DNA from: a virus
Taxonomy: Duplodnaviria > Caudoviricetes
Strand: one strand, 5' to 3'
DNA length: 64,000 bases
IMG/VR virus record: IMGVR_UViG_3300033121_001619
Coordinates: 62,320-126,319 of that record
Below are positions 12,550-59,835 of the stretch, in pieces. The notes beneath the pieces are model-generated. The model was not told the DNA's origin, did not search any database, and saw only the letters and a program-made list of their open reading frames with translations. Each line of letters opens with the position of its first letter. Position 1 is the stretch's first letter. Position numbers and translations under genes: made by a program.

Positions 12550-12783
12550 ATGTCGAAGACAGTCACGAAGAAGCAACTCGAAGACTTGAACAACGACTCA
12601 CTAGCTGCTAGAGAAGTGGTTCGTGAGATCATGAATTTCGGCGTAAATGAGCGTCAGAAAGTCATAATCATCCAAAGCCTCGCCATGACGCTAGAGGACA
12701 ATGAACTCATGCGAGCTTTGCTTGATTGCATCTCTGACATTGCTGGAGACAAGGTCTTCATCTCGAAGATGTTTGGAGAATGA
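12550..12783 (+). CDS. Hypothetical protein
   Basis: GAGGTG RBS before ATG 12550; packed in operon. Confidence 0.65.
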   Translation: MSKTVTKKQLEDLNNDSLAAREVVREIMNFGVNERQKVIIIQSLAMTLEDNELMRALLDCISDIAGDKVFISKMFGE

Positions 12784-12784
12784 C

Positions 12785-13426
12785 ATGGGACGTCAATCAA
12801 ATTCCAGGCTATCGAATTCGTCTCGCCAAGATTCACGACATCCCAGTGCCGATGCCGAATTCGGAGGAATGGCTCTCTCTGCCGGCGATGCTAGCAGGAT
12901 CGTCGTCTTGCATGGCGAGGTCAACGAGACGTCTGTCTCGGTCGTTGTCGCCAATCTCTTGCATATGGCTTCGGTCGACTTGAGTCCCATCTACCTTGTC
13001 ATCTCGACGTACGGTGGATCTGTCGATGAGATGTTCACGTTGTACGACACCATCAAATTCCTCCCATGCCCAGTCCACACGATCGCTTTGGGAAAGGTCA
13101 TGTCAGCTGGAGTGTTGCTGTTGGCTTCTGGGACGAAGGGTAAACGCATGATCGGAAAGTCTGCGAGGATCATGATACACCCGGTTTCGGGCGGAGCGAC
13201 GGGAAATGTGTTTCAGGTCGTTGCAGAAGCCGACGAACACGTCAGACTCCAGGACCAAATGGCGGACGCGATCGCCAATGAGACGAAGATGACACGTCAG
13301 AAGGTCAGGAAGATCATGTCGACCGGTCACGACGTCTACATCACGCCCGATGACGCTGTGAAGTACGGCATCGTGGACAAAATCATCGGAGCTTCCGTCA
13401 GGGACGTCATGAAAAGTTCGGAGTTA
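12785..13426 (+). CDS. clpP: ClpP-family protease proteolytic subunit (ends at TTA; standard-code TAG at 13432)
   Basis: YLVISTYGGSV, GKVMSAG (catalytic Ser), IMIHP (His), AVKYGIVDKII. Confidence 0.9.
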
Positions 13427-13445: not shown

Positions 13446-15074
13446 ATGCCACGTCATGACTATCGACCCTTCTTTCCGTTCGATGACGTGCGTTCGGAGC
13501 AGGATGAGGCGATAAGATTTGCAATCGATGCATTCGAGTCTGGGAAGAAGTACGTAGTTCTCGAGCTTCCGACCGGGATTGGAAAATCAGCCATAGGACT
13601 CACGGTAGCACGCTACATGAATCAGCACGGAGACGACGTGCTTGATGCGGAAGGTCTACCTGTTCAGCGCACGTCATACGTGCTGACAACACAAAAGATA
13701 CTCCAGGATCAGTATGTCAAGGATTTCGGAGAGGCGTCCGGAAGAGACGTCCTGAGATCCATCAAGTCATCGTCGAATTATTCGTGTGGATTCTACTCAG
13801 GATCGACGTGTGCTGACTCGCGAAGACTCATGCGACTCATGTCAAAGGAAGTCGCAGGAACAGAATTCGAGAGACACTGTAAGTCATCGAAATGCCCGTA
13901 CGCGTCTGCCAAGGCAGAGTTCGAGGCGTCTCTGGTGTCGTTGACGAATTTTCCGTTCTTCCTCGCTAGCAAGAATCTGTCTACACGCTCAACGCTGGTG
14001 ATCGATGAGTGTCACAATGCTGAGTCGGAATTGGCTAAATTCGTGGAAGTCTCCTTTTCGGAGAGATTCGCGAAGGACATACTGAAGTGCAAGGTCCCGA
14101 AGATAGACTCGCAGCAAGCAGCCTTCGATTGGGTGTGTGCTTCTTATAAGCGTGCGCTTCTCAAGCATCAAAAGTCGATCAATGAGCGTCTGAAGTCAGG
14201 AGATCGTGGAGAGAACTCCAGACAAGCCGAGATGCTGGAGAAGCACGTGGAGAAAGTCCTGAAGTTCATCCAGATATACGATGAATCTAACTGGGTGATG
14301 AACGTCGTGTACCCGAAAGATGGAGCCAAGAGAGGATTTCGACGCTTCGAATTCAAGCCGGTCGACGTGTCCCACTTCGGTGGAGAACTTTTCGGGAACG
14401 CGGGAAGGATTCTAATGATGTCTGCCACAATAGTGGACAAGGACGTCTTTTGTCGATCGATTGGAATTCCCGTTGACGACGCGGCCTACCTGAGGCTAGC
14501 TTCCCCTTTCTCCGTCGAGAATCGTCCCGTCCTCTTCATGCCCGTGGGATCGATGTCGAAATCGAATATCGACAGAACGCTTCCGAAGATGGTCGAGACC
14601 ATAAAAGAGATCTTGGCGATCCACCCCGACTCAAAGGGAATCATACACACGGCCAATTACAGGATAGCCAAGCACATCCAAGACTCGATACCGTCGGATC
14701 GATTCGTCTTCCACGAAGCTAGCAACAGAGAGGAAGCTCTCAAGTTTCACCTTGCGTCGAAGGATCCGACGGTCATAGTGTCTCCCTCGATGATGGAGGG
14801 AGTCGACTTGTCAGACGACGCGTCACGTTTTCAAGTGATCTGCAAGATACCGTTCCCGTATTTGGGAGACCTCATGGTGAAGCGGCGCATGGAGAGGGAT
14901 TCAACGTGGTATCCTTACGTCACCGCGAAATCGATCATTCAGTCACTCGGAAGATCCATCAGGAACAAGGACGACCACGCGATGTCGTACATCCTCGACA
15001 GCGACTGGACCAACTTCTACGCCAGGAATGAGAGAATGTTCACTGACGACTTTCGTTTGGCACTTCACAGTTTA
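13446..15074 (+). CDS. DinG/Rad3-like SF2 helicase (ends at TTA; standard-code TGA at 15083)
   Basis: ELPTGIGKS, IDECH, MSAT, EGVDL, QSLGRSIR; Cys cluster compatible with Fe-S. Confidence 0.9.
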
Positions 15075-27327: not shown

Positions 27328-28071
27328 ATGGGATTTCTAGACAACTCGACGAACAACCTCATCATTGACGCAGTCCTGACGGATTATGGTCGTCAGCTCT
27401 TGGCTCAGGCGAACGGATCTTTCAACGTCAAGTACTACGCATTCGGTGACGATGAGGTCGATTACCGTCTGATCAAGCGATATGGGAGGACGGTCGGCAA
27501 GGAGAAGATCGAGAAGAACACTCCGATCCTCGAGGGCATCACGAACCCAGCTGTCGCCTTGAAGTACAAGCTTGTCGGTCGTGAGACGTCGGGAGAGACG
27601 TCGGCGGCATTCATGCCAATCCTTCAGACGACATCGACGCCAGCTCTGGTCAAGAACACCCAGTCGTCCTACACGGTGACGGTCGATCTCTACTACAACA
27701 ACTCGACGGGAGCCGCAGTACCAGTAGAACTCATCCAGCCCGTGTACAAGATAGCTGTGTCCGATAGGTTCTTCACCATAACGGATTCCGGGATGGGTAG
27801 GATAACAGCTCCTGCAGCTGGATCGTCGATGATAAATGCGGGAGATCCGAACAGGACGGTCACGTACACGTACACCGTGACGAACAATTCCACATCGATA
27901 TCTTTCGTCGTCACCGCCAAGAACATCGACAACACGACGCTGTCGGTGTATGGGAAGAGGATCAACTCCACTTCGTCGACCAGAGAGATCACAAGCTACA
28001 TCACGGTCACGGGGGAGAGACATGGATGCACCATCAACATACCCGTGACTTACAGGGCTTCTCTCACCTTA
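27328..28071 (+). CDS. Putative tail/baseplate structural protein (TTA-TAG at end)
   Basis: MGFLDN...DAVLTDYGRQLLA...FGDDEVDY; GGAGGA RBS; ends ACC TTA TAG. Confidence 0.7.
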
Positions 28072-28086
28072 TAGGATTGGAATCAC

Positions 28087-29361
28087 ATGTCGACCCAAAA
28101 GCAGCTACTTCCATCCGACAAGAAGGTGACTCGAACGTTCTTGACGCAGCTCATAGACGTCATCCAGGAGGACGTATCGTCGTCAGCTTCGCGCAGGAAG
28201 TATCAGTCGTTCGTGACTGGAGGCATCGGACCCGGGGTGACGTCGAGTCTGTTTCAGACCGTATACGACCAAGATTTCACCCTACAGACTGCCAACCCGG
28301 TCTTCGACATAACGTTCGGTCTCGCGCCACCCGACGTCAACGTCGATGGTATAGCCGCAACGACATCGACGGCTGTGGACGACGGTGGCAAGTATCTTTA
28401 TCCGAGCAGCTCTCTCATGATGAGAGAGAAGACGGACATTTACGGTCAATTCTCACAGATTCTCCTCGGAGACAGGGGAGAGACTTTCAAACTGCCAGTC
28501 GATCCAACGTTCACGACGTCTCAGACGACGACCGACATCGATGCCGCACTGTTCATCGCCTTCAAGCGTCTCTTCTCGCGCGATCAGATCAAGCGTGAGA
28601 CCTTCGCGATGAAGTTCTATCAGACCGCTTCCTACGTCAGCACCATCGCCGGACAGGACACGCCTCCGGCAGCCGATTCCAGCGGAGTGACGAACATCTA
28701 CCGGACTTCGACGACAGGCTCGGCGATCTACACCGACATAGGATCTTCGGATTCTCGCTTCTTCAGCGTGGGTGGACAGTACGGATACCTCGTCAACGCT
28801 GCCAACACGTCGAACGCCGTCGGCCTGATCTACTACGATCATGGCATCGTCGTCCTCGACATCGAGAAGGTCACGTCAGGATCTCAGTTCATATCGGGAA
28901 CCATCTCTGCCATGAACTCCCTGGGACAGACGGTCCTCGGAGGCGCTGGGACCGAGACAGCATACACGGCGAAGGTCGTCCCAGATCTCTTGACGTCCGG
29001 ATCGATCGACGACGTGATCGATCACTTCAGCTACGCTCGATTCGGAAGCGGCACTCAGACGGCGTTCACGTTCCAGAACTCGACGTACATCAACTCGTCA
29101 CTGATCTTCTGCAACGCCCTGCCAGACGATTTCAATTACTCTTCGAATCCCACGTACACCGAGGAGAGCGGAGACTTCAAGGGTAGACTGACGATATACG
29201 ATCCCGCCCTTCCAGAGGAGTCTCAGGAGCCTTTTGCCTTCATCACCACGATCGGCCTGTATGACAACACGGGAGGGTTGGTGGCTGTGGCGAAACTCAG
29301 CCGGCCCGTGGAAAAGAATCCTGGGCGAAACCTTTCATTTAGGGTCCGGACTGACTATTTA
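28087..29361 (+). CDS. Putative tail/baseplate structural protein (ends at TTA)
   Basis: C-terminal ITTIGLYD...VAKLSRPVEK...FRVRTDY, then TTA overlapping the next ATG (TTATG). Confidence 0.7.
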
Positions 29362-31835
29362 TGTCAGTCATACGTGTGACATCAGACGACGTGCAGCACA
29401 CCACGGTGATCACCACACCGAGGCGTTACTACGCGTCTTCGTCACACGGAACGACGGGATCTGTTCTGGTGAGACCTAGGGCATCATCGTACGAGAAGTC
29501 GACCGATGCTTTCGAGGACAGACACGAGGATTCATCGTACGATTCTCTCTTGAGATCGACGCTGTCGAGAGCGAAGTACTTCAGGGCGTCGTCACGCAAC
29601 ATCTTCACGACGATGCAGACGTATGTGTCGGGGGTCAATGTCCTGAGCGAAAAGGACGACGTCGTGATGGACGTCACCCGATTCACCCCCGGCACCAGTT
29701 TCACGAAGTATTTCTTGCGCAAGGGTATCGTGAAGGACACGCTGATGCGTTATTATCGCACGGCATATCCTCAGGCCACGTGGGCCTACACGAATTCGAA
29801 CGCCCTGAATTTCTTCACGGCGTTCTCCGGATCGACTCAGCTAGTTCCTACGGGATCGGTCCTGCTCTATCCCAACGTCGTGACGTCATCAGCTCCGGAG
29901 CACGTGGGTTACGTCTCTGGATCCTACTGTCTTTCCGGAGCCTTCACTTTCGATCTACACGTGAATCCTCGCTACGAGGACGACGGGATAGACGCAGGAC
30001 ACTTCAAGGACGGGACAATCCTTCACCTGTCTTCGTCGTATGCTCTCTCCTTGGTGACTGGGTCTCACAAGGACGCTAGGGGATTCCCGCTAGGATTTCG
30101 CCTCAAGCTTCAGCTGAGTCACAGCGCCGGTCTGGCACCGTCGTCCACGAATCCCGGGTCGTATCCGCACGATCTCACGTTCCTGTCCGACGATAATTCT
30201 TTGACGAGGAATCGATGGCATCACGTCATCGTCAGATGGGGAACGTCACTCGTGGACGCTGGGACGGGGTCCTTCGTCATCGATGGTCGCCGCTCGGGAA
30301 ATTTCGTGATACCGTCGGGAACGATATCACCAAGACCGTTCGTGAATTCTCTCAATCCCGACGTCCTGTGTCTGGGAAACTTCTACGAGGGAACGAATTA
30401 CGGCACGTCTGCCCAAAGCATATTCTTCTCTCCAGACAACGCTACGCGAGACGGCGTCGACCAGCTGACGTCCGAGAACTCCGTCGAGGATCCTGTCAAC
30501 TATCGATTCAATCATCCGCTCAAGGCCGAACTGCACGACGTCCTCATTCGACGTCATTATCTCACCGACAGTGAGATCGTCGCCTCTGGTTCCACGGGTC
30601 ACGGACGATCCGTCAGGGACCAGATGGACTTCGCCTTCTACGTTCCACCGTTCTTCGTCCAAGAGGGACCGATCTTGCGGTGGGTCGGTGACCGAGGCGG
30701 TGTGCTGCAAACACCGTTCTTCGAGGTGGATGGTACCACGGACGACCCGTTCAACGTGGCCATGTCGTTCGGGGTCGGCGGTCACATGATCAACCTGGAG
30801 AATTTCGTGAAGGACTTCTCGACAGGTAGGTTTCCTCGTCTATTTCGACTCACGGGATCGACAATCGATCACACGACCGATCTCCTCGATGCCAACGACG
30901 TGATCTATTCCGATCCCGGCGTCGTGAAGAGGAACTTGTCCATTTTGCCGTGCGACGACGGGACGTTTGATCCGTGTTACGAGCTTCTCGACGACGAGAA
31001 CTACACCAACAAATACGTGGACGCCGAGGGAGTGACGGACCTGAGTCTCATCAGCCTGTCTGGACTCTTGTCGACGTCATCCTTTCAGGCAGGAGGAATC
31101 CACGCGGAGTCGCCTGATGACTACGTCGAATTCCTCTACGGACCGTCTCCGGAGAAACCGGGTCTCGAGCCCGGGAAGTCGTTCTTGAAGTACATGAGTC
31201 TCCTGACAGCGTCCATAGGATCGGACGGTCAGATCGATCGTGGAGTTCAGCAGGGTGCCCCTCTCACGATTTATCAGCGTACGCAAGACTCCTCGTCGAA
31301 TCAAGTCACGTTCTTCAACGTGTCAAACATCTTCTACGGACGAAGGATCCTGCCCGGATCCGTCGTGTTGCGTGACTCATCGATGACAGGTAGCTCAGGA
31401 GTCGTGTCAATCACATTGAGAGACGACGCGATGGGAAGCCTCTATCGGGCAGACTCCGACACTCCCCATCACATCAAGAACACCGTTGGGAACGTCTTCT
31501 ACGACGAGGGAATAATCGTCGTCAAGAGTCCTCACTTGAATTTCTTTGGCAAGGATGGCTTCGAGCTCGAATTCAAGGGTGTACAGCACATCAATGTCAC
31601 ACGCTATGAGATCGTCGCACCTTCTGGCATGCTCAATTCCTCGTCCAATCCCACGCATCCAGGCTGGGATCTCCGACCATCGTCCAATCCGATCGACACG
31701 GAACCCTTCGTATACATCAGCGGCATCAATCTCCACGACTCCAACATGAATGTCGTCGCTCGTGTCAGACTGGCTCAGCCGGTCATGAAGAGAGAGGGAG
31801 ATCGTCTTCTCTTCCGCGTGGCCATGGATTCGTTA
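29361..31835 (+). CDS. Putative tail/baseplate protein with LamG/ConA-like domain (ends at TTA)
   Basis: RWHHVIVRW is LamG-like; C-terminus parallels the previous gene (RLAQPVMK...FRVAMDS), then TTATG overlap; standard-code end 32066. Confidence 0.7.
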
Positions 31836-33381: not shown

Positions 33382-33390
33382 GATCAATAG

Positions 33391-34353: not shown

Positions 34354-34379
34354 TCAGCATCAGGGGATAGTTACGGATC

Positions 34380-35348: not shown

Positions 35349-35382
35349 ACACTGAGTTCAGGAGTCAGTATGTTAGGAATGA

Positions 35383-38300
35383 ATGACTCGTATTGCTCAT
35401 ACAGCTGACGTTCACATTCGTTCCTTGTCCCGACACGATGAGTATCGGGAAGTACTGACAAGCTTCATAGAGAAGTCTCGAGATCTTGGAGTAGATCACT
35501 TCTTCATCGTGGGAGACGTCTTTCACACCAAGACGTCAGGGATATCTCCCGAGTACATTGACATGCTCACGTGGTGGCTTCGATCCATGGCGTCGCATGC
35601 ATGCGTGCACATCATGCTGGGAAACCACGACGGAAATCTGAGCAACCTGTCTAGACAGGATGCCGTGAGTCCCATCGTCAATGCACTCAACGATGACAGG
35701 ATTCGTCTCTACAAGAAGAGCGGCACGTACCCGGTCGATGACCTGATCGACCTCGTGATATTCTCTCCTTTCGATGAGCATGGATGGAAGGACGTCAGAC
35801 CGACAGTTGGCAAGGTCAACGTCGCCGGTTATCACGGCGCGGTGAGGAATTCACTGACGGAATCGGAGTGGAATTTGACCGACGGTGTCGAGTGTTCGTT
35901 CTTCGACGACTACGACATCGTCATGTTGGGAGACATACACAAGTCTCAAGTCCTACGACGTACGTCGGGGAGACCGTCGATGGTCTATCCTGGGACGCCC
36001 ATCCAGCAGAATTACGGCGAAGACGTCGTGAGGTCGTTCACGTTTTGGGACATACGTGGGAAGGACGACTGGGACGTCAAATTCGTCGATCTTCCTAATC
36101 CCAAGCCCTTCGTCACGGTCGACTGGTCAGGAAGTCCTCAAGAGACGTTCAAGAAATTGGAATGTCTCACTCCTGGAACGCGCATCAGGATCAGATCAGA
36201 CGACGCTCTTTCTCACGACGACGTTCACGTGATATCGGAGTTGGCGAGGACACGTGCGGTCGCCTCCGAGGTCGTCTTCAAGACCGAGAACGAGAAGATC
36301 GACACGACGAAGCTCACCGCCGGAGACATCGTCGTGTCGAAGTCCGACGTGAAATCTCCCGATGTCATCGTGTCGCTAGTGTCCGAATTCCACAAGGGAA
36401 TACCAGACGACGAGGTGACCTCTATCAAGGAGAGGGTGTCTTCGTATCTCGTAGGATCGAGAAACAACGACGATGTGACGAGAGGGACGTCTTGGTCGAT
36501 CGACACTCTAGAGTGGGACAACCTGTTCTCGTACGGAGAGGGAAACAGGATAGACTTCAAGAAGCTGTCTGGCATCGTCGGAATCTTTGGTCCCAACAGG
36601 ATTGGGAAGTCGTCGTTCGTGGGATCGATCATGTATACGTTCTTCAACACCTCCGACAGAGGATCGATGAAGAATTCGCTCATCTGTAACGTCAGGAAGG
36701 ACATGTGTCGATCTGCGGCGACGTTTGCCGTCGATGGATCCGAGCATCTCATCGAACGACAGACCGTGAAGACGGTCAACAGAAAAGGCGTCCAGAACGC
36801 CGTCACATCACTCAACCTCTTTCGCAGCGATGACGGGAATTTCACCGACATGTGCGGTGAGCAGAGGAACGACACCGAGAAATCACTCAGGAATTTGATC
36901 GGTACCTCCGAGGACTTCCTCGTCACTTCCGTCTCGTCGCAACGTGATCCAAACGACTTCATATCCCTGGGACCGTCGAAGAGACGCTCACTCTTGTCGA
37001 GATTCCTCCATCTCGACGTCTTCGATTCCCTGTACGACGCCGCGTCGAAGGACCTCGCGTCCGTCAAGGCTCGTCTGAAGACCTACCCGGAGATCGATTG
37101 GGATGCTGAGCAAGAGAGGCTGTCTCTATCGATACGTGAACGAACCATCGAAATAGCTCGTATCAAGGAGAGGATCGAGGAGACCCGATCGGAGATGTCC
37201 GACAAGACTTCGCTATTGAAGGACTTGTGCATCGACGACGTCGACATCGAATCCCTGGAGACCAGGGTCGCCGAATTGACGTCGCACCTCCAAAAAGCTC
37301 GATCCACCAGGAATAAGATCGAATCCGACCTGAGGTCAGCTGAGGAGGACATGTCGTCCATCGCGTCGAAATTGCTCGACGATGAGGCCCTGGGCGCTCT
37401 GGAGGAGTTGAGAGACTCATTCGAGTCATTGACGACGGAATTGAAGACGTTCACGCATCAGCGCGACATCAAGGCGAGTGAGGACAAGCGACGTCTCAAG
37501 ACCATCGGAATACTAGACGAGGTTCCTTGCGGTGACGAGTATCCGACGTGCAAGTTCATCAAGGACGCCATGGCTCTGAGGGAGACGAACGACGCATGGA
37601 GGAGATCCATGGGCGATCTCGAGTCGTCCATCGTCGACTTGACAAAAAGACTGGACGATTTCAGGCGTACGCACGGAGACGTCGCGGAGAGGATATCCGC
37701 GAACGGAAAGAACTCCGTGCTTTACGAGAGACGACGCGCCGACGTTTCGTCTCTTGAGTCCAAGGTCGAGAAGGCCGCGTCACTCATCGCGACCCTCAGC
37801 GCTGACTTGAGAGACGTCGTCTCCCAATTGGAGAAGGCCCGATCGACCCAGGACAAATCCGTCGCGGTTAGACGTAAGAATCTCCAGGGAGAGATACAGA
37901 GATTGTCTGACGATGACCGGCGTCTCATGTCTTCACTCACGTCTCATGCTTCATCGTTGGGAAAAGACGAGAGGGATCTCGAAGACATTCGTCGTCGTCA
38001 CGTCGAGAGAGACGTGCTGCTGGAAGAGGCTCGGATGCTCAGTCGCCTCACTTCCGCGTTCTCCAAGAAAGGTGTGCCGCTCTTGGTCACGCGCTCTCAG
38101 CTCCCGGCGATAAACGCCGCCATATCGTCAGTCCTCAACGGCATCGTCGACTTCGACGTCTCTCTCGAAGTCGACGATGACACGGACACCCTGGAGATAG
38201 TGGTCGACTATGGAGACTCTCGACGGTACATCGAGATGTGTAGCGGGATGGAGAAAACGATGGCGTCATTGGCGGTCCGAGTGGGTCTGTCGAAAGTGAC

Positions 38301-38808: not shown

Positions 38809-39192
38809 ATGAATAACGTAGACATCAATGCGCTCGGTGAGGCGATGGACACGACTTGGGGGAGATCCTCGACTCCCGTGGTGTCCGACCGATCCGTGAA
38901 GTTCAAGTTCGCGGGTGACGATAGGGTCTCCGTCACTTTCTCCATGCTCGTCAACTTCTCCTCGGAACGGGAGATGATACAGACGAAGAAGGCGTGCATG
39001 GAGGAATCCAGCACCGTCATCAACGAGTACGTCAAGTCGGTCAAGGGGTCCTACAAGGACAGGACCGGAGAGACCCTGAAGTTCAAGGAAGTGTCGTCGA
39101 ACGACTCGATCGAGATCGTCTCCTTCAACGTCCACAATCCGAAGAGGACTGGGCTCTTGCGGAGGGTCGTCACGTACGAGGTGTCGACTTGA
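38809..39192 (+). CDS. Hypothetical protein upstream of terminase
   Basis: 127 aa ORF, GAGGT RBS, upstream TACTTA motif. Confidence 0.7.
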   Translation: MNNVDINALGEAMDTTWGRSSTPVVSDRSVKFKFAGDDRVSVTFSMLVNFSSEREMIQTKKACMEESSTVINEYVKSVKGSYKDRTGETLKFKEVSSNDSIEIVSFNVHNPKRTGLLRRVVTYEVST

Positions 39193-40778
39193 ACGACACG
39201 TCTCGGGCTGCCCGCGTCGCGGAGATAGTCAAGTGCGGTAAGGATCCCGTGTACTTCATGAAGAAGTACTGCAAGATCCAGCACCAGCTTCGCGGCATGA
39301 TACCGTTCGAGACGTACCCGTTCCAGGACGATTGCGTGAAGCAATTCCAGGAGAATCGCTTCAACATAGTCCTCAAGTCCAGACAGTTGGGCCTATCGAC
39401 CGTCACGGCCGCCTACGCACTCTGGTTCGCGCTGTTCAAGAAGGACAAGAACATCCTGGTCATCGCGACGAAGATGAAGACGGCCATGAACTTCATCAAG
39501 AAGGTCCACGTCATGCTCGACAACCTACCGACGTGGATACTCCTCGCCAAGTTCGAGAAGACGAAGCAGAGCGCCCGATTCGACAACGGATCCTCGATCA
39601 CGGCCATACCGACGTCTCCCGACGCGGGAAGGTCGGAGGCCCTCGCCCTCCTCATCATCGACGAGGCAGCGTGGATCAAGGACTTCGACGAGATCTGGAC
39701 CGGTCTCAAGCCCACCATGTCGACCGGCGGATCGGCCATCCTCCTGTCGACGCCCAACGGCGTCGGTGGACAATACCATCAGATCTGGGTCGACGCCGAG
39801 GCGAGGCTCAACGAATTCAACCCGATACGTCTCCCGTGGAACGTCCATCCTGAGCACGACGAGGCATGGTTCATCAAGGAATCGAAGAGCCTCGACAAGA
39901 AGAAGATCGCCCAGGAGTTCGAGTGCAATTTCAACGCCAGCGGAGACACGTTCCTGTCACAAGAGGTACTGGGCCGGCTCAGGGAGGCCATCGAGCAACC
40001 GTCCAGGAGAGAGGGAAACCAGTCCCAGATCTGGATCTGGAAGGATCCTCGACCAGGTGCTCGATACATCCTCACGGCCGACGTGTCTCGCGGGGACTCC
40101 GACGACTTCTCGACATTTCACGTCGTCGACTACGACACGGCCGAGATGGTATGCGAGTTCATGGGAAGGTCACCGCCGGACAAATTGGCGGACCTGATGA
40201 TCGAGTACGGGACGAGGTACAACGGGGCACTCCTGGCTCCGGAGCTCAACTCGTTCGGCTACTTCACGTCGTCAAGGCTGAGGGACTCCGGTTACTCTCC
40301 CCTCTACTACGCTAGCTGTCGTGACGATCACTTCACGTATAAGCCATCCAATCCCAAGGAGAACCCGGGCTTCACGACCAACCTCAAGACCCGACCCCAG
40401 ATGCTGGGCTCCCTGGAGGAGATGACTCGAAACGGTCAATTCCTGTCCAGGTCGCAACGCCTGTTCGAGCAACTACAGACGTTCACCTGGCACGGCAACA
40501 AGGCGACGGCCATGGTGGGATACCACGACGACCTCGTGATGAGCGCCGCGGCGGCGTGTTGGCTGTCCAGGCCCACTCGATCGGTCGAGAGGGTCGACGA
40601 CGTCGAGGCAACGACGGCCATGCTGAGGGCGACGTCCAAGGAGACGCGCTCGTCGGAGGGACTACCGCTCAGCGTCACCGGTCTGGGGACGGACAAGGTG
40701 ATCATGACCACCGACAGGCGGATGGGACGCCCACTCGGTCCGGGTATGTCCATGGACTATAGATGGCTTCTCACGTTA
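39189..40778 (+). CDS. terL: Terminase large subunit, T4 gp17-like (ends at TTA)
   Basis: KSRQLGLST (Walker A), IIDEAA (Walker B), STPNG, nuclease ADVSRG and HDDLVMS; probable TTG start overlapping the upstream TGA; ends DYRWLLT-TTA. Confidence 0.93.
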
Positions 40779-41196: not shown

Positions 41197-41226
41197 CGCG
41201 GTGTACCATCACCCCGAGGTGTGAGA

Positions 41227-44200
41227 ATGTCAAGCGGTAGGACTTCGAGGTCGCTGTTCCAGCGGCTCACGACCCTTTTCAGGTCGGGAAACGTCGCGAA
41301 GCAGAAGATCAGGACGCTCGACACGTCGGTCGCGTCGCCCGATAAGACGAAGAGCAGCGGCGCCATCATGTTCCAGAAGTCCGCGTCGCCGACGTACGCC
41401 AACATCACGGCGAACGCGTACAACCTCTCCGAGCGCCTGATGAGGTATCAGGATTTTTGCTTTGGGCGAGAGACTCTCGTGTACACGCTCGACGGTGTCT
41501 TTACGATCGAAGAACTGTCGAAGATGTATCCGAAGGGAGAACAGTTCTTCGTTTACTCTTACGATCACGAGAAGAAGACGCCCACGATCGGTACGGCTTT
41601 TTTCCCAAGAGTCGCAAACGGAGGTGCACCTTCGAAAGTCTGCAAGGTGACGTTTGACGACGGAGGTCACGTCTTCCTCACACCCGATCACAGAGTGATT
41701 CTACGTGATGGTACTGCCAAGGAGGTACGTGACCTTCGCGTAGGGGACAGTCTCATGCCGCTATACGTGAAAGACATCACGGGGCATGGATACAACTGGA
41801 TCTACATGCTTGGGAAGAAGACGAACTTCAAGAGCGGGTGGCTTCAGGAGCACGTATTTGTTGCGTCTCATTTCGATAGAGAGCCGCGCTCAGGTGAATG
41901 CGTTCATCACAAGGATTTCAACAGGAAGAACAATCATCCATCCAATCTCGTGGTGATGAATGAATCAGATCACCAAAAATATCACGCCCAGCTCAACAAC
42001 AAGAACAAGCGTGGAATACCGAATCAACGTCATTCTGATTGGATGCGTACCAACGGCAATCGACGACGTGACGTAACCTTTCAGTCGATCGTGTCGGCGT
42101 GTCTTGCTCAGGATACGTTGACGCTGGCAGACATCGTGAGTCACTTCGATACTGATGTCAATGCGATCAAATTGCGTCTCAAAGAAGCCGGATTTCGGAA
42201 TTGGGAAGACTTCGAGAGTAGATTCGATGAAGCTCAGAGAATCGCCACGCACGAAATCGTGGTGAAGGAGACGAGGACTCCCACGGTAGACGAAATCGTC
42301 GAGGTGGCAAAAGTCGCAGAGACTGTCGAAGAAGCTGCCAGTCGCCTATCGTGCACACGCAATGCCATTGGACGACGATTGCAATCGTTGGGTTACAAGA
42401 ATTGGACAGAGTACAAGACTGGAATCCCGTATTCAGGAAAGAAGCGCGGTCCCAAATACGACGGTCCGTCTTTTCAGGTCATCTGTTCCGAATATAAGCC
42501 CGGAATGACCAAGCTGGAATTGGCAGCTGCGTGCGGAACGTCACACAATAAGGTGATGACATGTATTCGTGCGAACGGCTATCACAATTACTCCGATTGG
42601 GTCAATTCATTCAATAACCACAAGGTCAGCTCGATCGAAGAGTGCGGAGAAGACGTCGTCTATACCGTGACTGTTGAAAAACATCACAACCTTGCTGTTG
42701 GTTCGATATCACCAAATGACGATGGTCGTCGCCCACACTCAATGATATTCTGTCATCAGTGCGAGATGGAGTATACGCCCGAGATAGCTAGCGCCCTCGA
42801 CATATACGCGGATGAGGCGTGTCTGTCGGGAGACTCCGTCATACCCCTCTTGAATGGGACGCGTCGAACCATCGCCGACCTATACGCAAACGATGCGAAG
42901 GATTTCTGGGTCTATTCCTACGACCTCGAGAGGAACGCGATCGTACCCGGGAAAGCCACTAGCGTCGTTCGAACGGGGACCAAGCAGCTGTTTCGAATCG
43001 AAATGGATGATGGGACTTTCGTCAGACTGACGGACAACCATCGAGTCCTGTTGAGTTCGGGTGAGTACGTCTTCGTCAGAGACCTGAGGGAGGACGACAG
43101 CATTCGTTCTCTGTACACCTCGACGTCGAGCAAGAAGGTCGGCGATAAGATTGACGGGTACGAAAAAGTCCTGACTAGCGAGGGCTGGAAGTTCACACAT
43201 CGTCTGATTGCCGAATTCGATGATCCGAATTCGTCGGGAATCGTTCATCACGTCGACTTCGACAAGCGCAACAACTCACCGGAGAACCTGAGGTTCATGA
43301 CGTGGAAGGATCACCTAGACCTTCACGGATCTGCCAACGTAGAGAGGTGGAAAGACGACTCCTACTCTCAAAAGATGCGCGACGTATTCCGCGATAGGGC
43401 AAAAAGGTTGCATATGCAACCTGGATTCACGCGACATCTCCTCGCCATGAGAGATGCGAAATTTTCATCGTACGACGCTGATGAACGTCGTCGTCTGTTT
43501 GCACGATCAGGTGCGCACAACGGCATGCATGGCAATGGTTGGAAGATTTCGGGCATCAAAAATGGGCGCTGGGATGAGAGATTCGTAAGAAGGGTGACAC
43601 GCGAACAGATCATCGAATGGATCGAATCGGGAAAATCCAAGCGTCAGGTGTGTGACGAATTGCCAATGCGCCACGACGACATGACGCGCCATCTAAGGCA
43701 GTATGGGATAAAGAAGTGGACGAAGAAAAATGTCATAGATCAGTCTGACGTCATGCAGAAGCTGGGTTCATGGAGAGGACGCCAGCCGTGTGGATTGGAT
43801 CTACGACGTCATTTGAAGAGGGCGTGCGCTGATATCGACATAGACGTCGACGTTGCATATCGTGCATTGAAACTAACGGGATATCGCAATTGGAGCGATT
43901 TTCTGGAGAGAACGAATCACAGGGTGAAATCCATCGTTCCGGACGGTGTCGAGGACGTGTACGATATCACTGTCGATCGTTGGCATAACTTCGCTGTGAC
44001 GGGAAGTCCCATTGCCGATTCCTTCGTGTTCGTTCACAACTGCTCAGTCGACGAGAAGGGCCAGGTGCTGCACGTCTACTCCGACAACCCGAAGATCAAG
44101 GACGCGCTCGAGCATCTCTTCTACGACAACCTGAACGTCGGATTCAACCTCCGGTCGTGGACTCGTAACACGGTCAAGTACGGCGACCTGTGTCTCTACA

Positions 44201-45762
44201 ACGACGTGTCGCCCGAGTACGGCGTCATCAACGCCGTCCCGATCCCCATCAACGAGATCGAGCGCGAGGAGAACTACGACCCCAACGATCCTCTCGCCCA
44301 TCGATTCAGGTGGGTGACCAACGGAAACAGGGTCCTGGAGAACTGGGAGGTGTCGCACTTCCGCCTCCTGGGCAACGACATGTTCCTGCCGTACGGCTCG
44401 TCGGTCATCGAGGCCGCGAGGCGCATCTGGAGGCAGCTCATCCTGGTCGAGGACGCCATGCTCGTCTACAGGATCGTCAGGGCTCCGGAGCGCAGGGTCT
44501 ACTACATCGACGTGGGCAACATACCTCCGGCCGACGTGGAGCTCTACATGGAGGAGCAGAAGAAGCGACTCCGATCGTCTCAAGTCGTCGATAGGACGTC
44601 GTCGAGGGTCGACCTGAGGTACAACCCGCTGTCGATCGACGAGGACATCTTCGTCCCCGTCAGGGGACAGGACACCGGGACGAAGATCGAGACGCTGGCC
44701 GGCGGACAGAACGCCGCGGCGGTCGAGGACGTCGCCTACATCCAGAAGAAGCTGTTCGCGGCCCTCAAGGTGCCACGGGCCTACCTGGGATACGACGAGA
44801 GCCTCAGCTCGAAGTCGACGTTGGCCCAGGAGGACATACGTTTTTCTCGCACCATCAACACCATCCAGCGCACGATGATAGCCGAGCTGAATAAACTGGC
44901 CATCATCCACCTGTACGTCCACGGGTTCGACGACGACGACCTCCAGAACTTCGTCCTCCGGATGTGCAACCCGTCGACCATAGCCCAGCAACAGAAGCTC
45001 GAGCTGTGGCGCGCCAAGTTCGAGTTGGCCGGTTCGGCCCCCGAGGGATACGCCAGCAAGGACTTCGTTCGAAAGGAGCTGTGGGGACTCAACGACGAGC
45101 AGTGCAAGATGATCGACGAGCAGCGTCTGAAGGAGAAGATGGTCGATGCTGCCATCGAAGGGGCCACGTCGGGAGAGTCCGAAGGCGGCGACATGGGCCT
45201 AGGCGACCTGGGAGGCGAAGAGACTGAGGAGCCCGCCGGTGGAGAGGAAGCAGGCGGAGAGGAGCTGACGGCCGGCGACGACGTCGACGAGAAGGACGGC
45301 AAGGACCTCCTGACCGCCGGCGACGACGTCGGAGACGACGACGAGATTCCCATCAAGTTCGACCTCGACGACGTCACGGTCCCCGTGAAGGCTCAGCGTC
45401 AGCTCGACAAGGCCCTGTACGATCGAGCCAGGATCAAGCACGGCGGACCTGCGAAGACTCACATGCCCGATTTCGCGAAGATGACGGGCGCCGGCAGCAA
45501 GCGTGACTCCGACCCGTTCGACAGCGAGTTCCTGTCGTCGTTCGCCAGGAATCAGTTGGGAGAGTCCGAGTCCAGGACGACTCACAGGACGTCGGTCAGC
45601 CTCGACACGGTGCACATGCTTCGTAAGATGGCCGAGTCGCCCAAGTTCGCCAAGAGTCCGGGCAGGTCGATCTCGTCTCCTCGCGTCATCGTCGAGGAGG
45701 TCGAGGACGTCCCTGATCAGCGAGAGTTCGACGAAGTCTACGTCATAGACGAGGACGAGTTA
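41227..45762 (+). CDS. Portal protein, T4 gp20-like, with two inteins (ends at TTA)
   Basis: PEIASALDIYADE, EDAMLVYRIVRAPERRVYYIDVGNIP, TKIETLAGG, KKLFAALKVP; GAGGTG RBS; about 670 aa after splicing. Confidence 0.93.
41458..42759 (+). mobile_element. Portal intein 1 (434 aa), HNH endonuclease, ends His-Gln
   Basis: Starts CFGRET; block B TPDHRV; HHKDFNRKNNHPSNL; block F VYTVTVEKHHNL; ends FCHQ|C. Confidence 0.9.
42820..44040 (+). mobile_element. Portal intein 2 (407 aa), HNH endonuclease
   Basis: Starts CLSGDS; TDNHRV; HHVDFDKRNNSPENL; VYDITVDRWHNF; ends VHN|C. Confidence 0.92.
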
Positions 45763-45811
45763 TGTATCCCAGGGACTCGTGAACCGAGTCCCATCGAGAG
45801 GAATGGTCGAG

Positions 45812-48888: not shown

Positions 48889-49131
48889 ATGAAGCTCACC
48901 GACAGACTCCTGAAGAAGATGATCGAAGAGGAGTTGACCAAGCTCACCGAGACCGATGAAGTCGACGCCGAGGCCGAGGAGGTCGAGGCGGGCGATGAGG
49001 CCTCGACCCTCGAGAAGAAGATCGACTTCATCAAGGCGCTCAAGATCGAGGAGGCACGCCTCAATAAGCGCAAGCGCAAGATCAACGAGGCGCTTCTCAA
49101 GCTGGGTGCTCGTGGAAGGAGCCGTAGATGA
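48889..49131 (+). CDS. Small head-region protein
   Basis: Leader MKLTDRLLKKMIEEELTKLTE. Confidence 0.7.
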   Translation: MKLTDRLLKKMIEEELTKLTETDEVDAEAEEVEAGDEASTLEKKIDFIKALKIEEARLNKRKRKINEALLKLGARGRSRR

Positions 49132-49730
49132 GCGGTCCTGGCAAGGGAAGGTACACGACGTACGTCCCGAAGGCCTCGGCGCGTAACGCTCGTCTCAGCA
49201 AGCTCTTCAACGAGCAGGCCGAGAACGACGCCGGCGTCCTGTACGGTGCTCCTGGGCAGACGAACAACTCGGACGCTGCCAAGGCGGCTGTCGCTCGAGC
49301 CGTCGCGCCTGTCGTGAACGGTGTGGGTGGTCTCATTCCGTCGGACGGACGTCAAGTCGGCGATCCGGACATGTTTCCGGCCGGCGTCAACTTGGCCTAT
49401 GGAGACGCCCCTGACGTGTCGAAGGTCGAGTGGAAGCAGAACTCCGACGCGATTCGCGTCAACATCTACGGCGACGCCGCGGTGGAGGCAGGAGGACCTG
49501 CCAACGCTTACTCTCCCGATCCCACTTCGCCTGGCGCGGGGCCTGCCGGATCGATCAACGTCGATCCGCTCTCCAAGGACGCCGATCCCGGGATATCGAT
49601 CGACGACATGAAGCCAGGATACATCCCGGGCGCCCCCGGCACCGGCACGACCAATCCCTCGGTGACCAGCAAGGGTCTGGGAACGTCACCTTTCGCGAAG
49701 GACTTGATTCCCGGCAAGTCGTCGGTCTTA
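49128..49730 (+). CDS. Gly/Pro-rich hypothetical virion protein (ends at TTA)
   Basis: TTA at 49728 is followed by the AGGAG RBS and ATG 49745 of the next gene. Confidence 0.7.
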
Positions 49731-55412: not shown

Positions 55413-56357
55413 ATGGTGAGGATGAAGATGAGCAGCCTCCGACGCATGATCGAGTCGGAGGTGAGGAGATCGCTTCGTGAGGACGCGAATCCCGCGAAGA
55501 TCAACGACATGCTCTACCCGAAACGCCTGAGGGCCGTGAAGGATCCTGAGGTGGCGAAGGCCCTCTCCTCCGGCGGGAAGGACGACGGCGTGGTCGACGA
55601 CGACACGGCCGGGACGGGTAGGACGTCGGCTGCCGCCAACACCTTGAAGGCCAGCCAGACGACGATGGACTTCCAGAAATTCGTCGCCATGTCCATCCTC
55701 ATGTTGACTCGACACGGAGCCTTCTCCAGTGGTCCTGGTGGTGACCTAGGCGCCATCGTGTCGTCCGACGGACACATCATGGACGGCCATCACCGCTGGG
55801 CCGCCACTCTCATGGTCGATCCCACCGCCGACGTGGGAGGCATCAAGGTCGACATCCCTGGAGAGAAACTGGTCGGAGTCCTGAACGTGTGGACGGTCGC
55901 GAAGGGTCAGAAGGGCAAACCTTCCACGGCGAACATGAGCGACCTCACGCCTGACGCCGTCGCCGACAAGTTCAAGGAGATGGCCACCAGCGGCATCAGC
56001 GGGATGGACTCGAAGGCCATCGCCGCCGGACTCAGCAAGAACGGATTCGAGTCGATCGACGCCGCCGCCGAGCACGTCAAGAAGAACTGGGAGTCCACGT
56101 CGAAGAACCGAGCGATCAAGGCGTGGATGCCCGAGAAGGTCGACATGCCGGCCATCGAGCCGGAGCAACTCGCCCAGGTCGCGAAGGACATCGCGTCGGG
56201 CGACATGGACATCAATCCTCCCTATTCCGACAAGGTGAAGTCCCTCCTGAAGATGTCGACGAAGAAGGAGAAGTCGCCCCCGGAGAACGCAGGGAGACGA
56301 ATCTCGGGCGATCCTCTCGTGGAACGCTGGCAGCGCCTGGCCGGAATCATCAAGTTA
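55413..56357 (+). CDS. ParB/Srx-like domain protein (ends at TTA)
   Basis: IVSSDGHIMDGHHRWAA; ends RWQRLAGIIK-TTA, matching the scaffold end RWGLLAGITK-TGA. Confidence 0.75.
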
Positions 56358-56493: not shown

Positions 56494-56757
56494 ATGGCGA
56501 AGAACAAGAGGAATGGGCGCGTTCGTGGTGAGATTCACACACGTTATGACAGGAATGGGTGCCTGAGGACGGAGACGACACGTCGGAATCCTGACTTCCA
56601 AGTGAAAATCGCCGCGAGACAGGATCCGACGACCGGTCGACTGTCGGTCTTCATCGACACTCCTGATGAGGAGTCGATCGAGCTTGATGGGAAGTCGGCA
56701 CGCACCCTCTACAGGGTGCTTCGTCAGCACTACGTCGCGACCGGGAGGTCGGCGTGA
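56494..56757 (+). CDS. Small basic hypothetical protein
   Basis: GAGGAG RBS; upstream TTGAAA-N18-TACAGT. Confidence 0.65.
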   Translation: MAKNKRNGRVRGEIHTRYDRNGCLRTETTRRNPDFQVKIAARQDPTTGRLSVFIDTPDEESIELDGKSARTLYRVLRQHYVATGRSA

Positions 56758-57374
56758 GCGAGACTTACGTCGACGTGAAGCTGACCCCGAGTCAGCTCAT
56801 GCTCGTCGTGGGCATGGTCCATGCCTCCCTGGAACGTGGGGTCAGCAGTGACCTCCTTCGGGGAGACATGGAGGCATTCTACGATCACCTCGTCGAATAC
56901 CTGACGACAACCTCTTCGGAGGCTTCCGAAGAGGAAGCTTCGAACGATGAAGACTCGTCGTCCGTCGAGGAGGAAAACTCCGACGACGAGGATGAGAATG
57001 AGGAGACCGAGGAGGAAGCTTCCGAGGAAGACGAGGAAGAAGACGATTATCGTTCCATCTCGATGGACAATTTTGTGTCGCTTCCATGGTTCACGACCGT
57101 GAATAAGAAGCGCTTCACGTTCAAGTGCCATCATCGAGAGCGTCGTTCTGACGTACTGTCTCTGGAGGACACGAGCGGAAATTGCTACGTCATCAAGCAA
57201 TTGATCATCTCATGTCCCGATCTCGATAGCCTCGAGATGGAGGCACTGATCGAAGAGGACGACGAAGGTCGAACGGATCTCTTCCTCGAGATCCCGCGTG
57301 CGAAGAATTCCAAGTTCTTGAAAGCCATCGAGGACATCATGGAGTTCGACGTCACCTATTCGATCAGACCGTGA
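56754..57374 (+). CDS. Acidic hypothetical protein
   Basis: GTGA coupling; long D/E tract. Confidence 0.65.
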   Translation: MSETYVDVKLTPSQLMLVVGMVHASLERGVSSDLLRGDMEAFYDHLVEYLTTTSSEASEEEASNDEDSSSVEEENSDDEDENEETEEEASEEDEEEDDYRSISMDNFVSLPWFTTVNKKRFTFKCHHRERRSDVLSLEDTSGNCYVIKQLIISCPDLDSLEMEALIEEDDEGRTDLFLEIPRAKNSKFLKAIEDIMEFDVTYSIRP

Positions 57375-57406
57375 TCCTTGACGAAGGGCGCGAGTCCCTT
57401 CGTCTT

Positions 57407-57784
57407 GGGGCATAAATGGCTTCGACGTCGTCGAAGATCGTAGGAGTGCAGGACCGGGTGCACGAGGGTCCCGGATGAAACCCATGTGAAACACGACCGA
57501 CGTCAGCAATGATTCGGCTCCTCTCGCCCTCGCGGCCTTAGGGACGGGTCCCGTCGACCTAGGAAAAGAATAGACGGAAGCAAGGATGTCACGTCTTGAC
57601 GTGAAGGGTGACGCATCATCGGGTGGGTGGTGATGCAACGGCCATGCGACACGAAGGTACGACCAGCCGACACGCGGTGAGAACCTTCTAGGGCGGACGA
57701 TCCCGATGAAAATCGTCCCAATCCTGTGAACGACTCCTACGATCGACGTCGGCGGACCCGGGTTCGATTCCCGGATGCTCCACC
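57407..57784 (+). ncRNA. ssrA: tmRNA
   Basis: 5' GGGGCAT...TTCGAC pairs with 3' ATGCTCC-ACC (G3:U Ala identity pair); T-arm CCGGG-TTCGATT-CCCGG; tag frame 57499-57540 reads DVSNDSAPLALAA then TTA. Confidence 0.93.
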
Positions 57785-57806
57785 GTCTATACTTAGGGTG
57801 AATAGC

Positions 57807-57880
57807 GCGCCCATGTTTCAACGGGAAGAATACTCCTACGCGTGTGAGGAGAAGTCCAGGTTCGAATCCTGGTGGGCGCT
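57807..57880 (+). tRNA. tRNA-like gene with atypical 9-nt anticodon loop; identity not assignable
   Basis: Acceptor GCGCCCA/TGGGCGC; T-arm CCAGG-TTCGAAT-CCTGG; anticodon stem CTCCT/AGGAG around ACGCGTGTG. Confidence 0.7.
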
Positions 57881-57895
57881 CGAAGGAGGAGACAC

Positions 57896-58069
57896 ATGTC
57901 AGCCACGTCGACGATCATACTCGAAGAGATCCGATCACTTGAGGAGGAGCTCAAGACAGCAACGGGAGACGCGCTCGAAGTCAAGAGGACACGTCTAGAG
58001 GAGCTCAAGAGGAATTTCAACTCCGCGACCCAGGCTCTGACGGAGGGTCGCTCCCTCCTCAAGGGATGA
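57896..58069 (+). CDS. Small coiled-coil protein
   Basis: AAGGAGG RBS before ATG 57896. Confidence 0.65.
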   Translation: MSATSTIILEEIRSLEEELKTATGDALEVKRTRLEELKRNFNSATQALTEGRSLLKG

Positions 58070-58070
58070 C

Positions 58071-58301
58071 GTGAGCGACGGTCAACAGGTGGTCGACCTC
58101 ATGCGTCCGCTGAGGTCAGCCGTCGATGGTTTGGCACCCAACATCATAGACGTTTTCGTCTCAGATCCACCTAGCGCAGTAGAGGGAGGAATACCGAGAC
58201 GAATCGTACGTCATCACAAGTACGTCAACGTCGGGATACTCTCTAGGGAGCTTCAGGAGAAGATCCTAGCCGCCATTCACTTCAATTCGTCTGGTTTTTT
58301 A
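58071..58301 (+). CDS. Hypothetical protein (ends at TTA)
   Basis: In-frame TTA at 58299; standard-code end 58361 also gives a plausible ATGA overlap, so this end is less certain. Confidence 0.55.
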
Positions 58302-58357
58302 CGACACGTAGCGCGCCACATGGTGCGAGACCATAAGGTGTCTGGCAAGGTCGATGG

Positions 58358-58813
58358 ATGACGGCTGTCGGTGTCATAGATCATCATGATGATTTGGATG
58401 GCGTCGGGAGTCTGACGCACACAGCGATAGACGAGTATTTCGTCAGCGGATCGTTTGTTTTTGTGTCCGGATCTCCGGGTCCGATCCCACAGGCAGCCAG
58501 GATACTCAAGGCAGGCTCGGGAGTCTCCATCGTTGACGGTGGCCCCGGAGGATTCCTGACGATATCGTCAGGAAATTCTGGGACGTCGATATCGTGGAAT
58601 GAGATTCCCGTTGGCGCCAACGACGGAGTGAACATGACCTTCGTGTTGGCCAATTCTCCTTTGTCGGCCAATTCCGTGATGCTGTTCATCAATGGTGTGA
58701 AGCAACGCTTGGGAATAGACAGCGACTTCACGTTGACTGGCAGCATCGTCAATTTGACGCCGTCTAACACCTATAGGAGCGGTAGTAACATCGACGCGAC
58801 GTATCCGTACTAA
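58358..58813 (+). CDS. Putative virion/tail-associated protein
   Basis: NEIPVGANDGVNMTFVL...LFINGVKQ; ends in TAA. Confidence 0.65.
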   Translation: MTAVGVIDHHDDLDGVGSLTHTAIDEYFVSGSFVFVSGSPGPIPQAARILKAGSGVSIVDGGPGGFLTISSGNSGTSISWNEIPVGANDGVNMTFVLANSPLSANSVMLFINGVKQRLGIDSDFTLTGSIVNLTPSNTYRSGSNIDATYPY

Positions 58814-58866
58814 TCGACGCTGCGTGGTATCGCGAGGTTCTCTCTATTTAGTACCATAGGTGATCG

Positions 58867-59835
58867 ATGCCACGTACGCTTATCTCGCAACCGTCACAAG
58901 TTCATTCCTCTGAGACGTATGACGATGCGCTGTCTGTGGGCTCCGGCTTGCAGACTGGGTCGACGTCGCTCGAATACGACCTCAATGCTCTCCGGACGCA
59001 GGTCAAGAGAATCCTGTGGGGTGCGGCATCAGGCTCTTGGTTCGATTCCGTCTCGGAGCCTTCTGGCTCTGGATCGGGGCGCGGTCTCAACACTGTCAAC
59101 TATGATTTGACAGACGTGGAGCAGAAGCGCCTGCTCTTTCGTCGTCAAGTCATCAGCATGGTAGACGTCGCCACGGGATCGAACGTCGCTCTACTCAGCT
59201 CTTCTCTGGGCACGGCACCTGTCGGTCTAGCAGTCGTATATCACCCGTTGCTGACGTCATCCACAGCTGTCGGGACAATCGTGTCTCTCCTCTCTGGTTC
59301 GGAGGGATCATATGGCACGGCCAGTCTCTCGTTGGTCTCTGGTAGCACCAGGATCACCCCAAAGAATCTGTGCGTGATCAGGGATGCATACACCCTCAAT
59401 GCACTCACGACTTCCGCCGGCAGTCACCAGATATACGGTCTCCTCCAGGTCGAATCTGGGACGAATACCGGAGATGCTTTCGGTGACGTCTCGACGCGTT
59501 CGCAGATATCGTTCGTATACCCACTCGTGTCAAACGGGACCGCGTCTCTCACCCTAGCGTCATCTCAAGACGTCGGAGGACGTTCGATCAATTGCGCTTA
59601 TGTCGAGAGGACAGCGTTCGACGACATCTCCGAGGAAGCTTTCCTGTTTGACGACGTCTTCGTTGGTAAGAGCTCATCGACGATATCGACGACGACAGGG
59701 TCATTGACAGCCACGCAAGTGGGTCAAGTACTGTACTCCATCGATGGAGCGACTTTTTCTGCGCAGATGCCTATTACGTCTCCCAGCACTGGCTGGCTCA
59801 TACAAGACGACGGCCTACATATCGTCGCGGGATGA
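58867..59835 (+). CDS. Ser/Thr/Gly-rich virion protein
   Basis: 322 aa ORF after a TATTTA motif; composition. Confidence 0.65.
   Translation: MPRTLISQPSQVHSSETYDDALSVGSGLQTGSTSLEYDLNALRTQVKRILWGAASGSWFDSVSEPSGSGSGRGLNTVNYDLTDVEQKRLLFRRQVISMVDVATGSNVALLSSSLGTAPVGLAVVYHPLLTSSTAVGTIVSLLSGSEGSYGTASLSLVSGSTRITPKNLCVIRDAYTLNALTTSAGSHQIYGLLQVESGTNTGDAFGDVSTRSQISFVYPLVSNGTASLTLASSQDVGGRSINCAYVERTAFDDISEEAFLFDDVFVGKSSSTISTTTGSLTATQVGQVLYSIDGATFSAQMPITSPSTGWLIQDDGLHIVAG

Follow-up and report, generated by a model that had tools for sequence, protein, structure and literature searches.

A probable fourth stop codon, UUA, at the end of the tmRNA tag and of protein genes in a wastewater giant phage

The codon UUA is probably used as a real stop signal in the system formed by the phage described here and its host, in addition to the three standard stops UGA, UAG, and UAA (rough probability, 0.8, judged from sequence comparison). 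The DNA analyzed, called “the window” in the following, is a stretch of 64,000 nucleotides that makes up the latter half of an IMG/VR virus record of 126,319 bases with an estimated completeness of 38%. It contains a full tmRNA gene, and the reading frame of the tag encoded by this tmRNA runs directly into a TTA at positions 57538 to 57540, an observation that was confirmed. TTA occupies the position of the stop codon in the tag frame, and it behaves like a stop codon in the protein genes of the same record.

The record has a G+C content of 55%; uses the codons CTA, ATA, and AGA freely; and encodes a T4-type portal protein, a prohead protease, and a major head protein. Inteins are present in two of these, the portal protein (window positions 41221 to 45762, with the Pfam domains Intein_splicing and HNH_3) and the prohead protease (45779 to 48412, with Intein_splicing and LAGLIDADG_3). 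The stretch was present in runs of 11 studies, mainly of wastewater and activated sludge, and the phage is a wastewater giant phage. Among the DNA runs containing it, the longest records measured 158 and 194 kb. Long open reading frames and a coding portion of 92% under table 11 argue against a wide recoding of stop codons into sense codons in this record. Two tRNAs only were found in the 38%-complete record. An intact tRNA for UAA and, through wobble, for UAG (anticodon UUA) is located outside the window in the same record (G000:C1:14662-14734); TAA still ends about 12 genes of the record despite the presence of this tRNA.

The tmRNA was the one RNA family found by Rfam in the window. Its parts are listed in Table 1, together with the genes that end at TTA. 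The structural features of a one-piece tmRNA were evaluated in an alignment with related phage tmRNAs. A G-U pair was present at the column pair 5-389 in 9 of 9 family members having this pair. The T-arm was intact in the copy of the window, the tRNA-like domain of which also has the 3' ACC end, and the T-stem covaried across the family. Three to four compensatory changes per pair supported the stem of pseudoknot 1 (columns 49 to 53 with 65 to 69). Altogether, RNAalifold assigned compensatory changes to 38 pairs in 10 family members, and the copy of the window retained these pairs. A helix that would accommodate the second base of the stop codon as a bulge (columns 132 to 138 with 158 to 163) was considered and rejected, with 75% of the cells paired and zero covariation.

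Table 1. Features of the tmRNA gene and protein genes ending at TTA in the window
Feature	Position	Strand	Evidence or remark
One-piece phage tmRNA gene	57407..57785	+	Rfam RF00023, 64.1 bits (gathering threshold, 47), E 1e-22, model positions 1-374
Acceptor stem, 5' strand, with G3 of the alanine identity pair G3:U70	57407..57413	+	Partner strand at 57775-57781
Conserved pseudoknot-1 block, used to gather the tmRNA family	57458..57491	+	Matches 11 IMG/VR and 17 metagenome stretches
Frame of the tag: 13 codons from the resume codon GAC on; LALAA at the peptide end	57499..57537	+	Codon-for-codon alignment with ARAGORN-called tags of relatives
TTA in the position of the tag stop	57538..57540	+	Aligned column: TGA in about 20 relatives; only the window and G004 have TTA
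Would-be extension of 10 codons if TTA were Leu	57541..57573	+	Not conserved as coding; indel relative to G004 breaks the frame
tRNA-Thr (anticodon CGT)	57807..57881	+	ARAGORN; 22 nt downstream of the tmRNA
ClpP-like protease, ends at TTA	12701..13426	+	Pfam CLP_protease, E 5e-41; TTA 2 codons before TAG
Helicase, ends at TTA	13446..15074	+	Pfam Helicase_C_2, ResIII
Gene with TTA directly followed by TAG	27328..28071	+	Homologues end 239/239 and 244/244, two residues before TTA
Tail-region gene, ends in TTATG with the next ATG	28087..29361	+	Last residue of three homologues opposite residue 424; TTA is codon 425
Tail-region gene, ends in TTATG	29361..31835	+	TTA is codon 825; first standard stop 77 codons further on
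Gene ending at TTA, 138 codons ahead of the first standard stop	38994..40778	+	C-termini of three homologues at TTA
T4-type portal with inteins, TTA 30 codons before TGA	41221..45762	+	Pfam Portal_T4, E 2e-67
Gene ending at TTA, next gene 15 nt later	49128..49730	+	Gene calls with four stops
Gene ending at TTA	55413..56357	+	Homologue ends 352/353 opposite residue 314; TTA is codon 315

An SmpB domain was found neither in the record of the window nor in the related genomes G001 to G003, so that the SmpB protein needed by the phage tmRNA presumably comes from the host, which is also the case for other tmRNAs of phages. A search of the window tmRNA against the GenBank phage collection returned no match. 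ARAGORN gave no call for the window tmRNA, and it missed also the TGA-closed copy of the related phage L074. The lack of a standard stop codon could be rejected as the cause because the program failed as well after the TTA had been replaced in silico by TGA and with other code options; its failure is uninformative on the function of TTA. An unusual T-loop, GGGGGCAGTACCC in place of GGGTTCGATTCCC, was seen in two related copies (L075:11977-12350 and L074:2742-3125), and both were missed by ARAGORN. The ClpP-like protease of the window shares its genome with a tmRNA whose tag carries a ClpXP-type degron.

Assignment of the tag frame needs to consider the quality of the alignment. The initial annotation had suggested fixing the resume codon with the Rfam tmRNA model. 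The model matched the gene over its full length, yet the alignment posterior was low across the tag and the model unreliable there for this purpose, so that the resume codon and the frame were fixed by aligning the tmRNAs of related phages instead. A search with the major head protein yielded 64 related IMG/VR loci, two of which contained a similar tmRNA, and a pattern search with the pseudoknot-1 block yielded 11 viral and 17 metagenome stretches, which gave about 20 distinct tmRNAs. The tags of these relatives, several of them called by ARAGORN, for instance ANDNGVAPLALAA, aligned codon for codon with that of the window. Two of the relatives, L069 and L074, encoded this same 13-residue tag with eight synonymous and zero other differences, indicating that the frame is translated and selected at the level of the peptide. 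In all relatives, the resume codon was located three codons past a conserved in-frame TGA; the window has GAC at this position, and the codon of the family is GCN. The frame named by the initial annotation is consequently the tag frame, by homology to about 20 tmRNAs and by the synonymous-only variation.

From GAC to GCC, the tag peptide of the window reads DVSNDSAPLALAA and is then followed by TTA, so that the sequence indeed contains the 13 tag codons and the TTA assigned to positions 57499 to 57540. If TTA were read as leucine, the frame would continue for 10 further codons to a TAG at 57571 to 57573, again in agreement with what had been stated before. TGA filled the column of the terminator throughout, apart from two phages with TTA, that of the window and G004 (L075/L208); a third codon was never seen. 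This comparison of tag stop codons had been recommended as a check, and it sets just these two phages apart. The tag of the window ends in LALAA like those of the relatives, with TTA as the next codon in place of TAA, TAG, or TGA, and it agrees with the short tag of one-piece tmRNAs, with its hydrophobic ...AA end and a stop codon directly behind, only if TTA is a stop. An indel just behind the TTA shifts the frame between the window and G004, and the two would-be extensions have neither frame nor length in common, indicating that an extension read through leucine is not conserved. A resume codon in another frame with a normal stop would have spoken against the whole assignment. The candidate, the +1 frame ending in TAG, was excluded because the relatives read CCT GAG at this site and have no stop there. 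A longer tag of 27 residues, which still ends in RLAA and is closed by TGA, was observed in L206:1030-1500; this contig of 1.5 kb closes with a second copy of the tmRNA start, so that its assembly may be circular or a repeat.

A tag must end at a stop codon to expose its degron, so that the tmRNA tests the code independently of protein gene calling. This independence had been claimed at the outset, and it held in the comparison: two phages close the tag with TTA, and in each of them TTA is found at the end of protein genes as well. The protein genes themselves were analyzed in 92 open reading frames of the record with at least 150 codons, with expectations derived from the position-specific base composition. 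In-frame TTA was found 23 times where 283 were expected, a depletion of about 12-fold (next rarest codon, 178), and TTA was common in the two other frames (169 and 57). The codons CTA, TTG, and ATA occurred in frame near expectation, and TCA and TTG were used normally. Moreover, 14 of the 23 in-frame TTA codons were located within the last 35 codons, compared to a baseline of 8.9% (p = 8e-10), and most of the remaining ones were upstream of the real gene start. When only non-overlapping reading frames were counted, TTA was at the C-terminus of the homologues in six cases and inside the alignment in one, which was in the variable tail of the portal protein. The same count for CTA, TTG, and ATA together gave 754 positions inside alignments (161, 305, and 288, respectively) and six at the C-terminus, and the difference to TTA was significant (Fisher p = 2e-11).

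Calling of genes with TTA as a fourth stop resulted in 120 genes, 76 of them ending with TGA, 16 with TTA, 16 with TAG, and 12 with TAA, and the number of same-strand overlaps of more than 8 nt dropped from 22 to 14. The 11 scorable TTA ends are all followed by a gene on the same strand that starts between −1 and +29 nt later, twice in the arrangement TTATG. The base behind TTA is C, T, or G and never A, which excludes a +1 slip of the ribosome onto TAA or TAG.

The homologues of the individual genes agree with TTA as the end of the coding region (Table 1). For the helicase, they reach their ends at 563/564, 561/562, and 937/937, facing residues 540 to 542, with TTA being codon 543, and for the longer one of the two tail-region genes, at 837/838, 864/865, and 782/783 opposite residue 823. 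The L004 homologue of the portal protein extends to 1071/1074, which faces the second residue ahead of the TTA. A further 75 homologue alignments stop short of this TTA, and against the stop reading, three continue past it within the variable tail. Two homologues end opposite residue 491 of another gene of the record, in which TTA is codon 492. Also against the stop reading, a TTA end that is 25 residues short of the homologues in G002 and G003 was found in a gene on the minus strand outside the window (record positions 33245 to 35650). These two homologues share a conserved C-terminal tail, and the phage gene may have been truncated recently. Since the genes for the helicase, the ClpP-like protease, the portal, and tail proteins all end at TTA, the activity acting on this codon would be needed throughout infection.

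The related phages show that TTA does not have one meaning in the family. G004, with the TTA-closed tag, has zero TTA codons inside alignments and three at the ends of homologues, including the capsid gene (58 homologues). The major capsid gene ends at TTA in G004 and in L013, at the position where 57 to 58 homologues end. In L074/L211, it is closed by TTA as well; 27 homologues stop one residue ahead of this codon, and for about 20 others the distance is three residues at most. L074 closes protein genes at TTA and nevertheless its tag at TGA, so that the tag alone is not diagnostic for the code of a phage. The closest sizeable relative, L004, has TTA at leucine positions in 11 of 14 aligned sites. 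In a tree of the capsid proteins, the phages with TTA as a stop are scattered among relatives with TTA as leucine, which means that the trait must have been gained repeatedly or follows the host. The distribution probably follows the translation system of the host.

Three other genomes, G001, G003, and G005, contain TTA at only 0.5 to 0.7 per 1,000 codons without using it as a stop. G003, which is 91% complete, carries 49 tRNAs, among them those for leucine with the anticodons CAG, TAG, and CAA, and Leu-UAA is absent. Its tRNA cluster (L078 to L093, at about 255 to 290 kb) covers most codon families, and TTA is the rarest codon of this genome at 0.65 per 1,000. One tRNA with the anticodon UUA and two with the anticodon CUA are also present in G003. 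The release-factor gene of G003 contains a TTA at a site that is leucine in 43 of 80 relatives, indicating that this phage still reads TTA as leucine. In G001 and G003, the TTA codons inside alignments are mostly at poorly conserved non-leucine positions, with a leucine majority at 4 of 18 sites compared to about two-thirds in G002. It looks like disappearance of the codon in some lineages and its capture as a stop in others.

These data need to be evaluated again under the assumption that UUA is not recognized by any factor. UUA may be a “hungry” codon without a decoding tRNA, at which the ribosome stalls until the chain is freed by a rescue system or by drop-off of the peptidyl-tRNA and its subsequent hydrolysis. 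Depletion from gene bodies and a missing reader tRNA would look identical in this case, with G003 and its absent Leu-UAA as an example, and the TTA-poor genomes G001, G003, and G005, which do not use the codon as a stop, resemble just such a stage of codon disappearance. We regard this explanation nevertheless as unlikely. Stalling on an intact mRNA leads to tagging by tmRNA and degradation of the protein. Tagging at UUA would destroy 13% of the phage proteins including the portal protein, and in three relatives the capsid protein. Ribosomes that merely stalled at UUA would depend on rescue, and since UUA also closes the frame of the rescue RNA, rescue would stall again at the same codon; on this reasoning, termination is preferred. 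The TTATG overlaps and the close spacing of the following genes look like ordinary termination with coupled reinitiation. Back-up stops just behind TTA, as a sign of leakiness, were not significantly enriched (p = 0.13 and 0.28). Release mediated by a factor at UUA, rather than stalling, is a reasonable interpretation of these points.

Alternatively, the tag stop may have mutated from TGA to TTA in a decaying or re-purposed tmRNA that lost its degron, the rarity of TTA in the protein genes being coincidental. A single transversion separates TTA from the TGA of the family, ARAGORN makes no call, and the resume codon is GAC and not GCN. All this would agree with decay, but ARAGORN fails even with the stop codon restored in silico, and the same sole substitution is present in G004, whose capsid gene also ends at TTA. 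The full-length match to the Rfam model, G3:U70, the T-arm, the pseudoknot-1 block, and the conserved tag are all intact, and the would-be extensions of the two phages are unlike each other in frame and length. Decay is consequently very improbable.

A false base at position 57539, introduced by sequencing or assembly or as an error specific to the strain, comes into question because the sequence stems from a single metagenome-assembled record, but it can practically be dismissed: the stretch is present in the runs of 11 studies, a frame-specific pattern over 120 genes with TTA common out of frame cannot be caused by base-calling errors, positions 57206 to 59000 were recovered with two differences in a contig from a DNA run of another study, and positions 56510 to 58371 with zero differences in an RNA-library contig of a 2024 wastewater study, the independence of which from the source sample is not proven. 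An assembly slip at the stop site of the tmRNA is unlikely in view of this identical contig, which, like all contigs from RNA-library runs, cannot show transcription. One RNA-library contig joined 57536 to 57754, and this joint is weak, with only 20 letters on its shorter side.

With UUA as a stop, trans-translation would resume at GAC 57499, 13 codons would be read, and the ribosome would terminate at UUA 57538 to 57540, releasing a protein with the usual LALAA degron at its end. The change from the ancestral TGA to TTA would have been a silent substitution of one stop for another. Release at UUA would be catalyzed by a release factor whose codon recognition has widened, and a tRNA-Leu(UAA) reading this codon would be absent from the system. 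The widened factor would most likely be that of the host, since TTA ends probable early genes, those for the helicase and ClpP, as well as structural genes. A host factor resembling the substituted RF2 or mtRF1a of organelles is the best guess.

An RF-1 domain was not found in the 38%-complete record. A short RF1-type factor with VPPTE and GGQ motifs but without domain 1 is encoded by relatives at about 80 IMG/VR loci (L077:1453-2120 on the minus strand, which belongs to G003, and L113 to L192). It is made only via a +1 frameshift like that of prfB, at which an SD-like AGGGG precedes CTT TGA or, in some relatives, CTT TAG or CTT TAA; CTT TTA was never seen as a frameshift site in G003 and the about 80 related release-factor loci. 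The VPPTE motif of this factor is the ordinary one, and its phages read TTA as leucine; the TTA-stop pattern was absent from all of the about 80 loci. In search of the host, contigs of bacterial genomes were screened for the pseudoknot-1 pattern, which gave two chance matches, neither of them a tmRNA.

A stop function of UUA is found in organelles. The code of Thraustochytrium mitochondria with UUA as a stop is NCBI table 23. These labyrinthulean mitochondria use UUA, the plastids of pedinoflagellates UUA and UCA, and the mitochondria of Marsupiomonadales and Pseudoscourfieldia UUA and UUG as stop codons, and the organellar UUA stop has been tied to substitutions in RF2 (Ser204; the Ser of the SPF motif) or in mtRF1a (PMC12574857). 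The phage resembles these organelles in the direction of the change, from leucine to stop at the same codon, which is absent within genes and sits at the stops of homologues. It differs from them by being a bacteriophage, which implies a bacterial translation system, and only UUA is affected here. For phages or bacteria, a UUA stop was unreported in the literature found, which names organelles only; the published bacterial and phage code changes found there turn a stop into a sense codon or swap amino acids, and changes from sense to stop are those of mitochondria and plastids.

In Lak, crAss-like, and huge phages, TAG or TGA is read as an amino acid (PMC7162821, PMC7886860, and PMC8346664). 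Like the phage of the window, they are large, carry tRNAs and translation factors, and have genes that are called incorrectly with table 11. The direction of the change is the opposite, sense to stop here and stop to sense there, and TTA ends replication-type and structural genes in the window and not late genes only. With a sense codon turned into a stop, table 11 yields C-terminal extensions and false overlaps instead of broken genes, so that a low coding density cannot serve as a flag.

Mycobacteriophages of cluster C encode tmRNAs. In huge phages, tmRNAs have been reported as well (PMC7162821). The tmRNA of the window shares with other phage tmRNAs the one-piece form, the tRNA-like domain, pseudoknot 1, a short tag with ...AA at its end, and the missing phage SmpB, and differs from them by a tag closed by a codon other than a standard stop. 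In Streptomyces, UUA is rare and under the control of the bldA tRNA, but it is still leucine and occurs inside regulatory genes (PMC10732093). The very low frequency of UUA and its special decoding are common to both systems; the TTA of the phage, in a genome of 55% G+C, is absent from gene bodies and located at gene ends.

Taken together, it is likely, with somewhat less confidence than for the stop function as such, that UUA is a fourth stop read by a factor in a wastewater bacterial host and its phages, rescue by tmRNA included, and that a T4-like family switches between TTA as leucine and TTA as a stop when moving between hosts. If this is true, annotation with table 11 falsely extends or fuses about one gene in eight in such phages, and in three relatives the capsid gene. 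Some bacterial host should then possess a release factor of widened specificity, and capture of a sense codon as a stop would become testable in a tractable system. The relatives in which TTA has nearly vanished but still means leucine would look like the codon-disappearance stage of such a codon capture.
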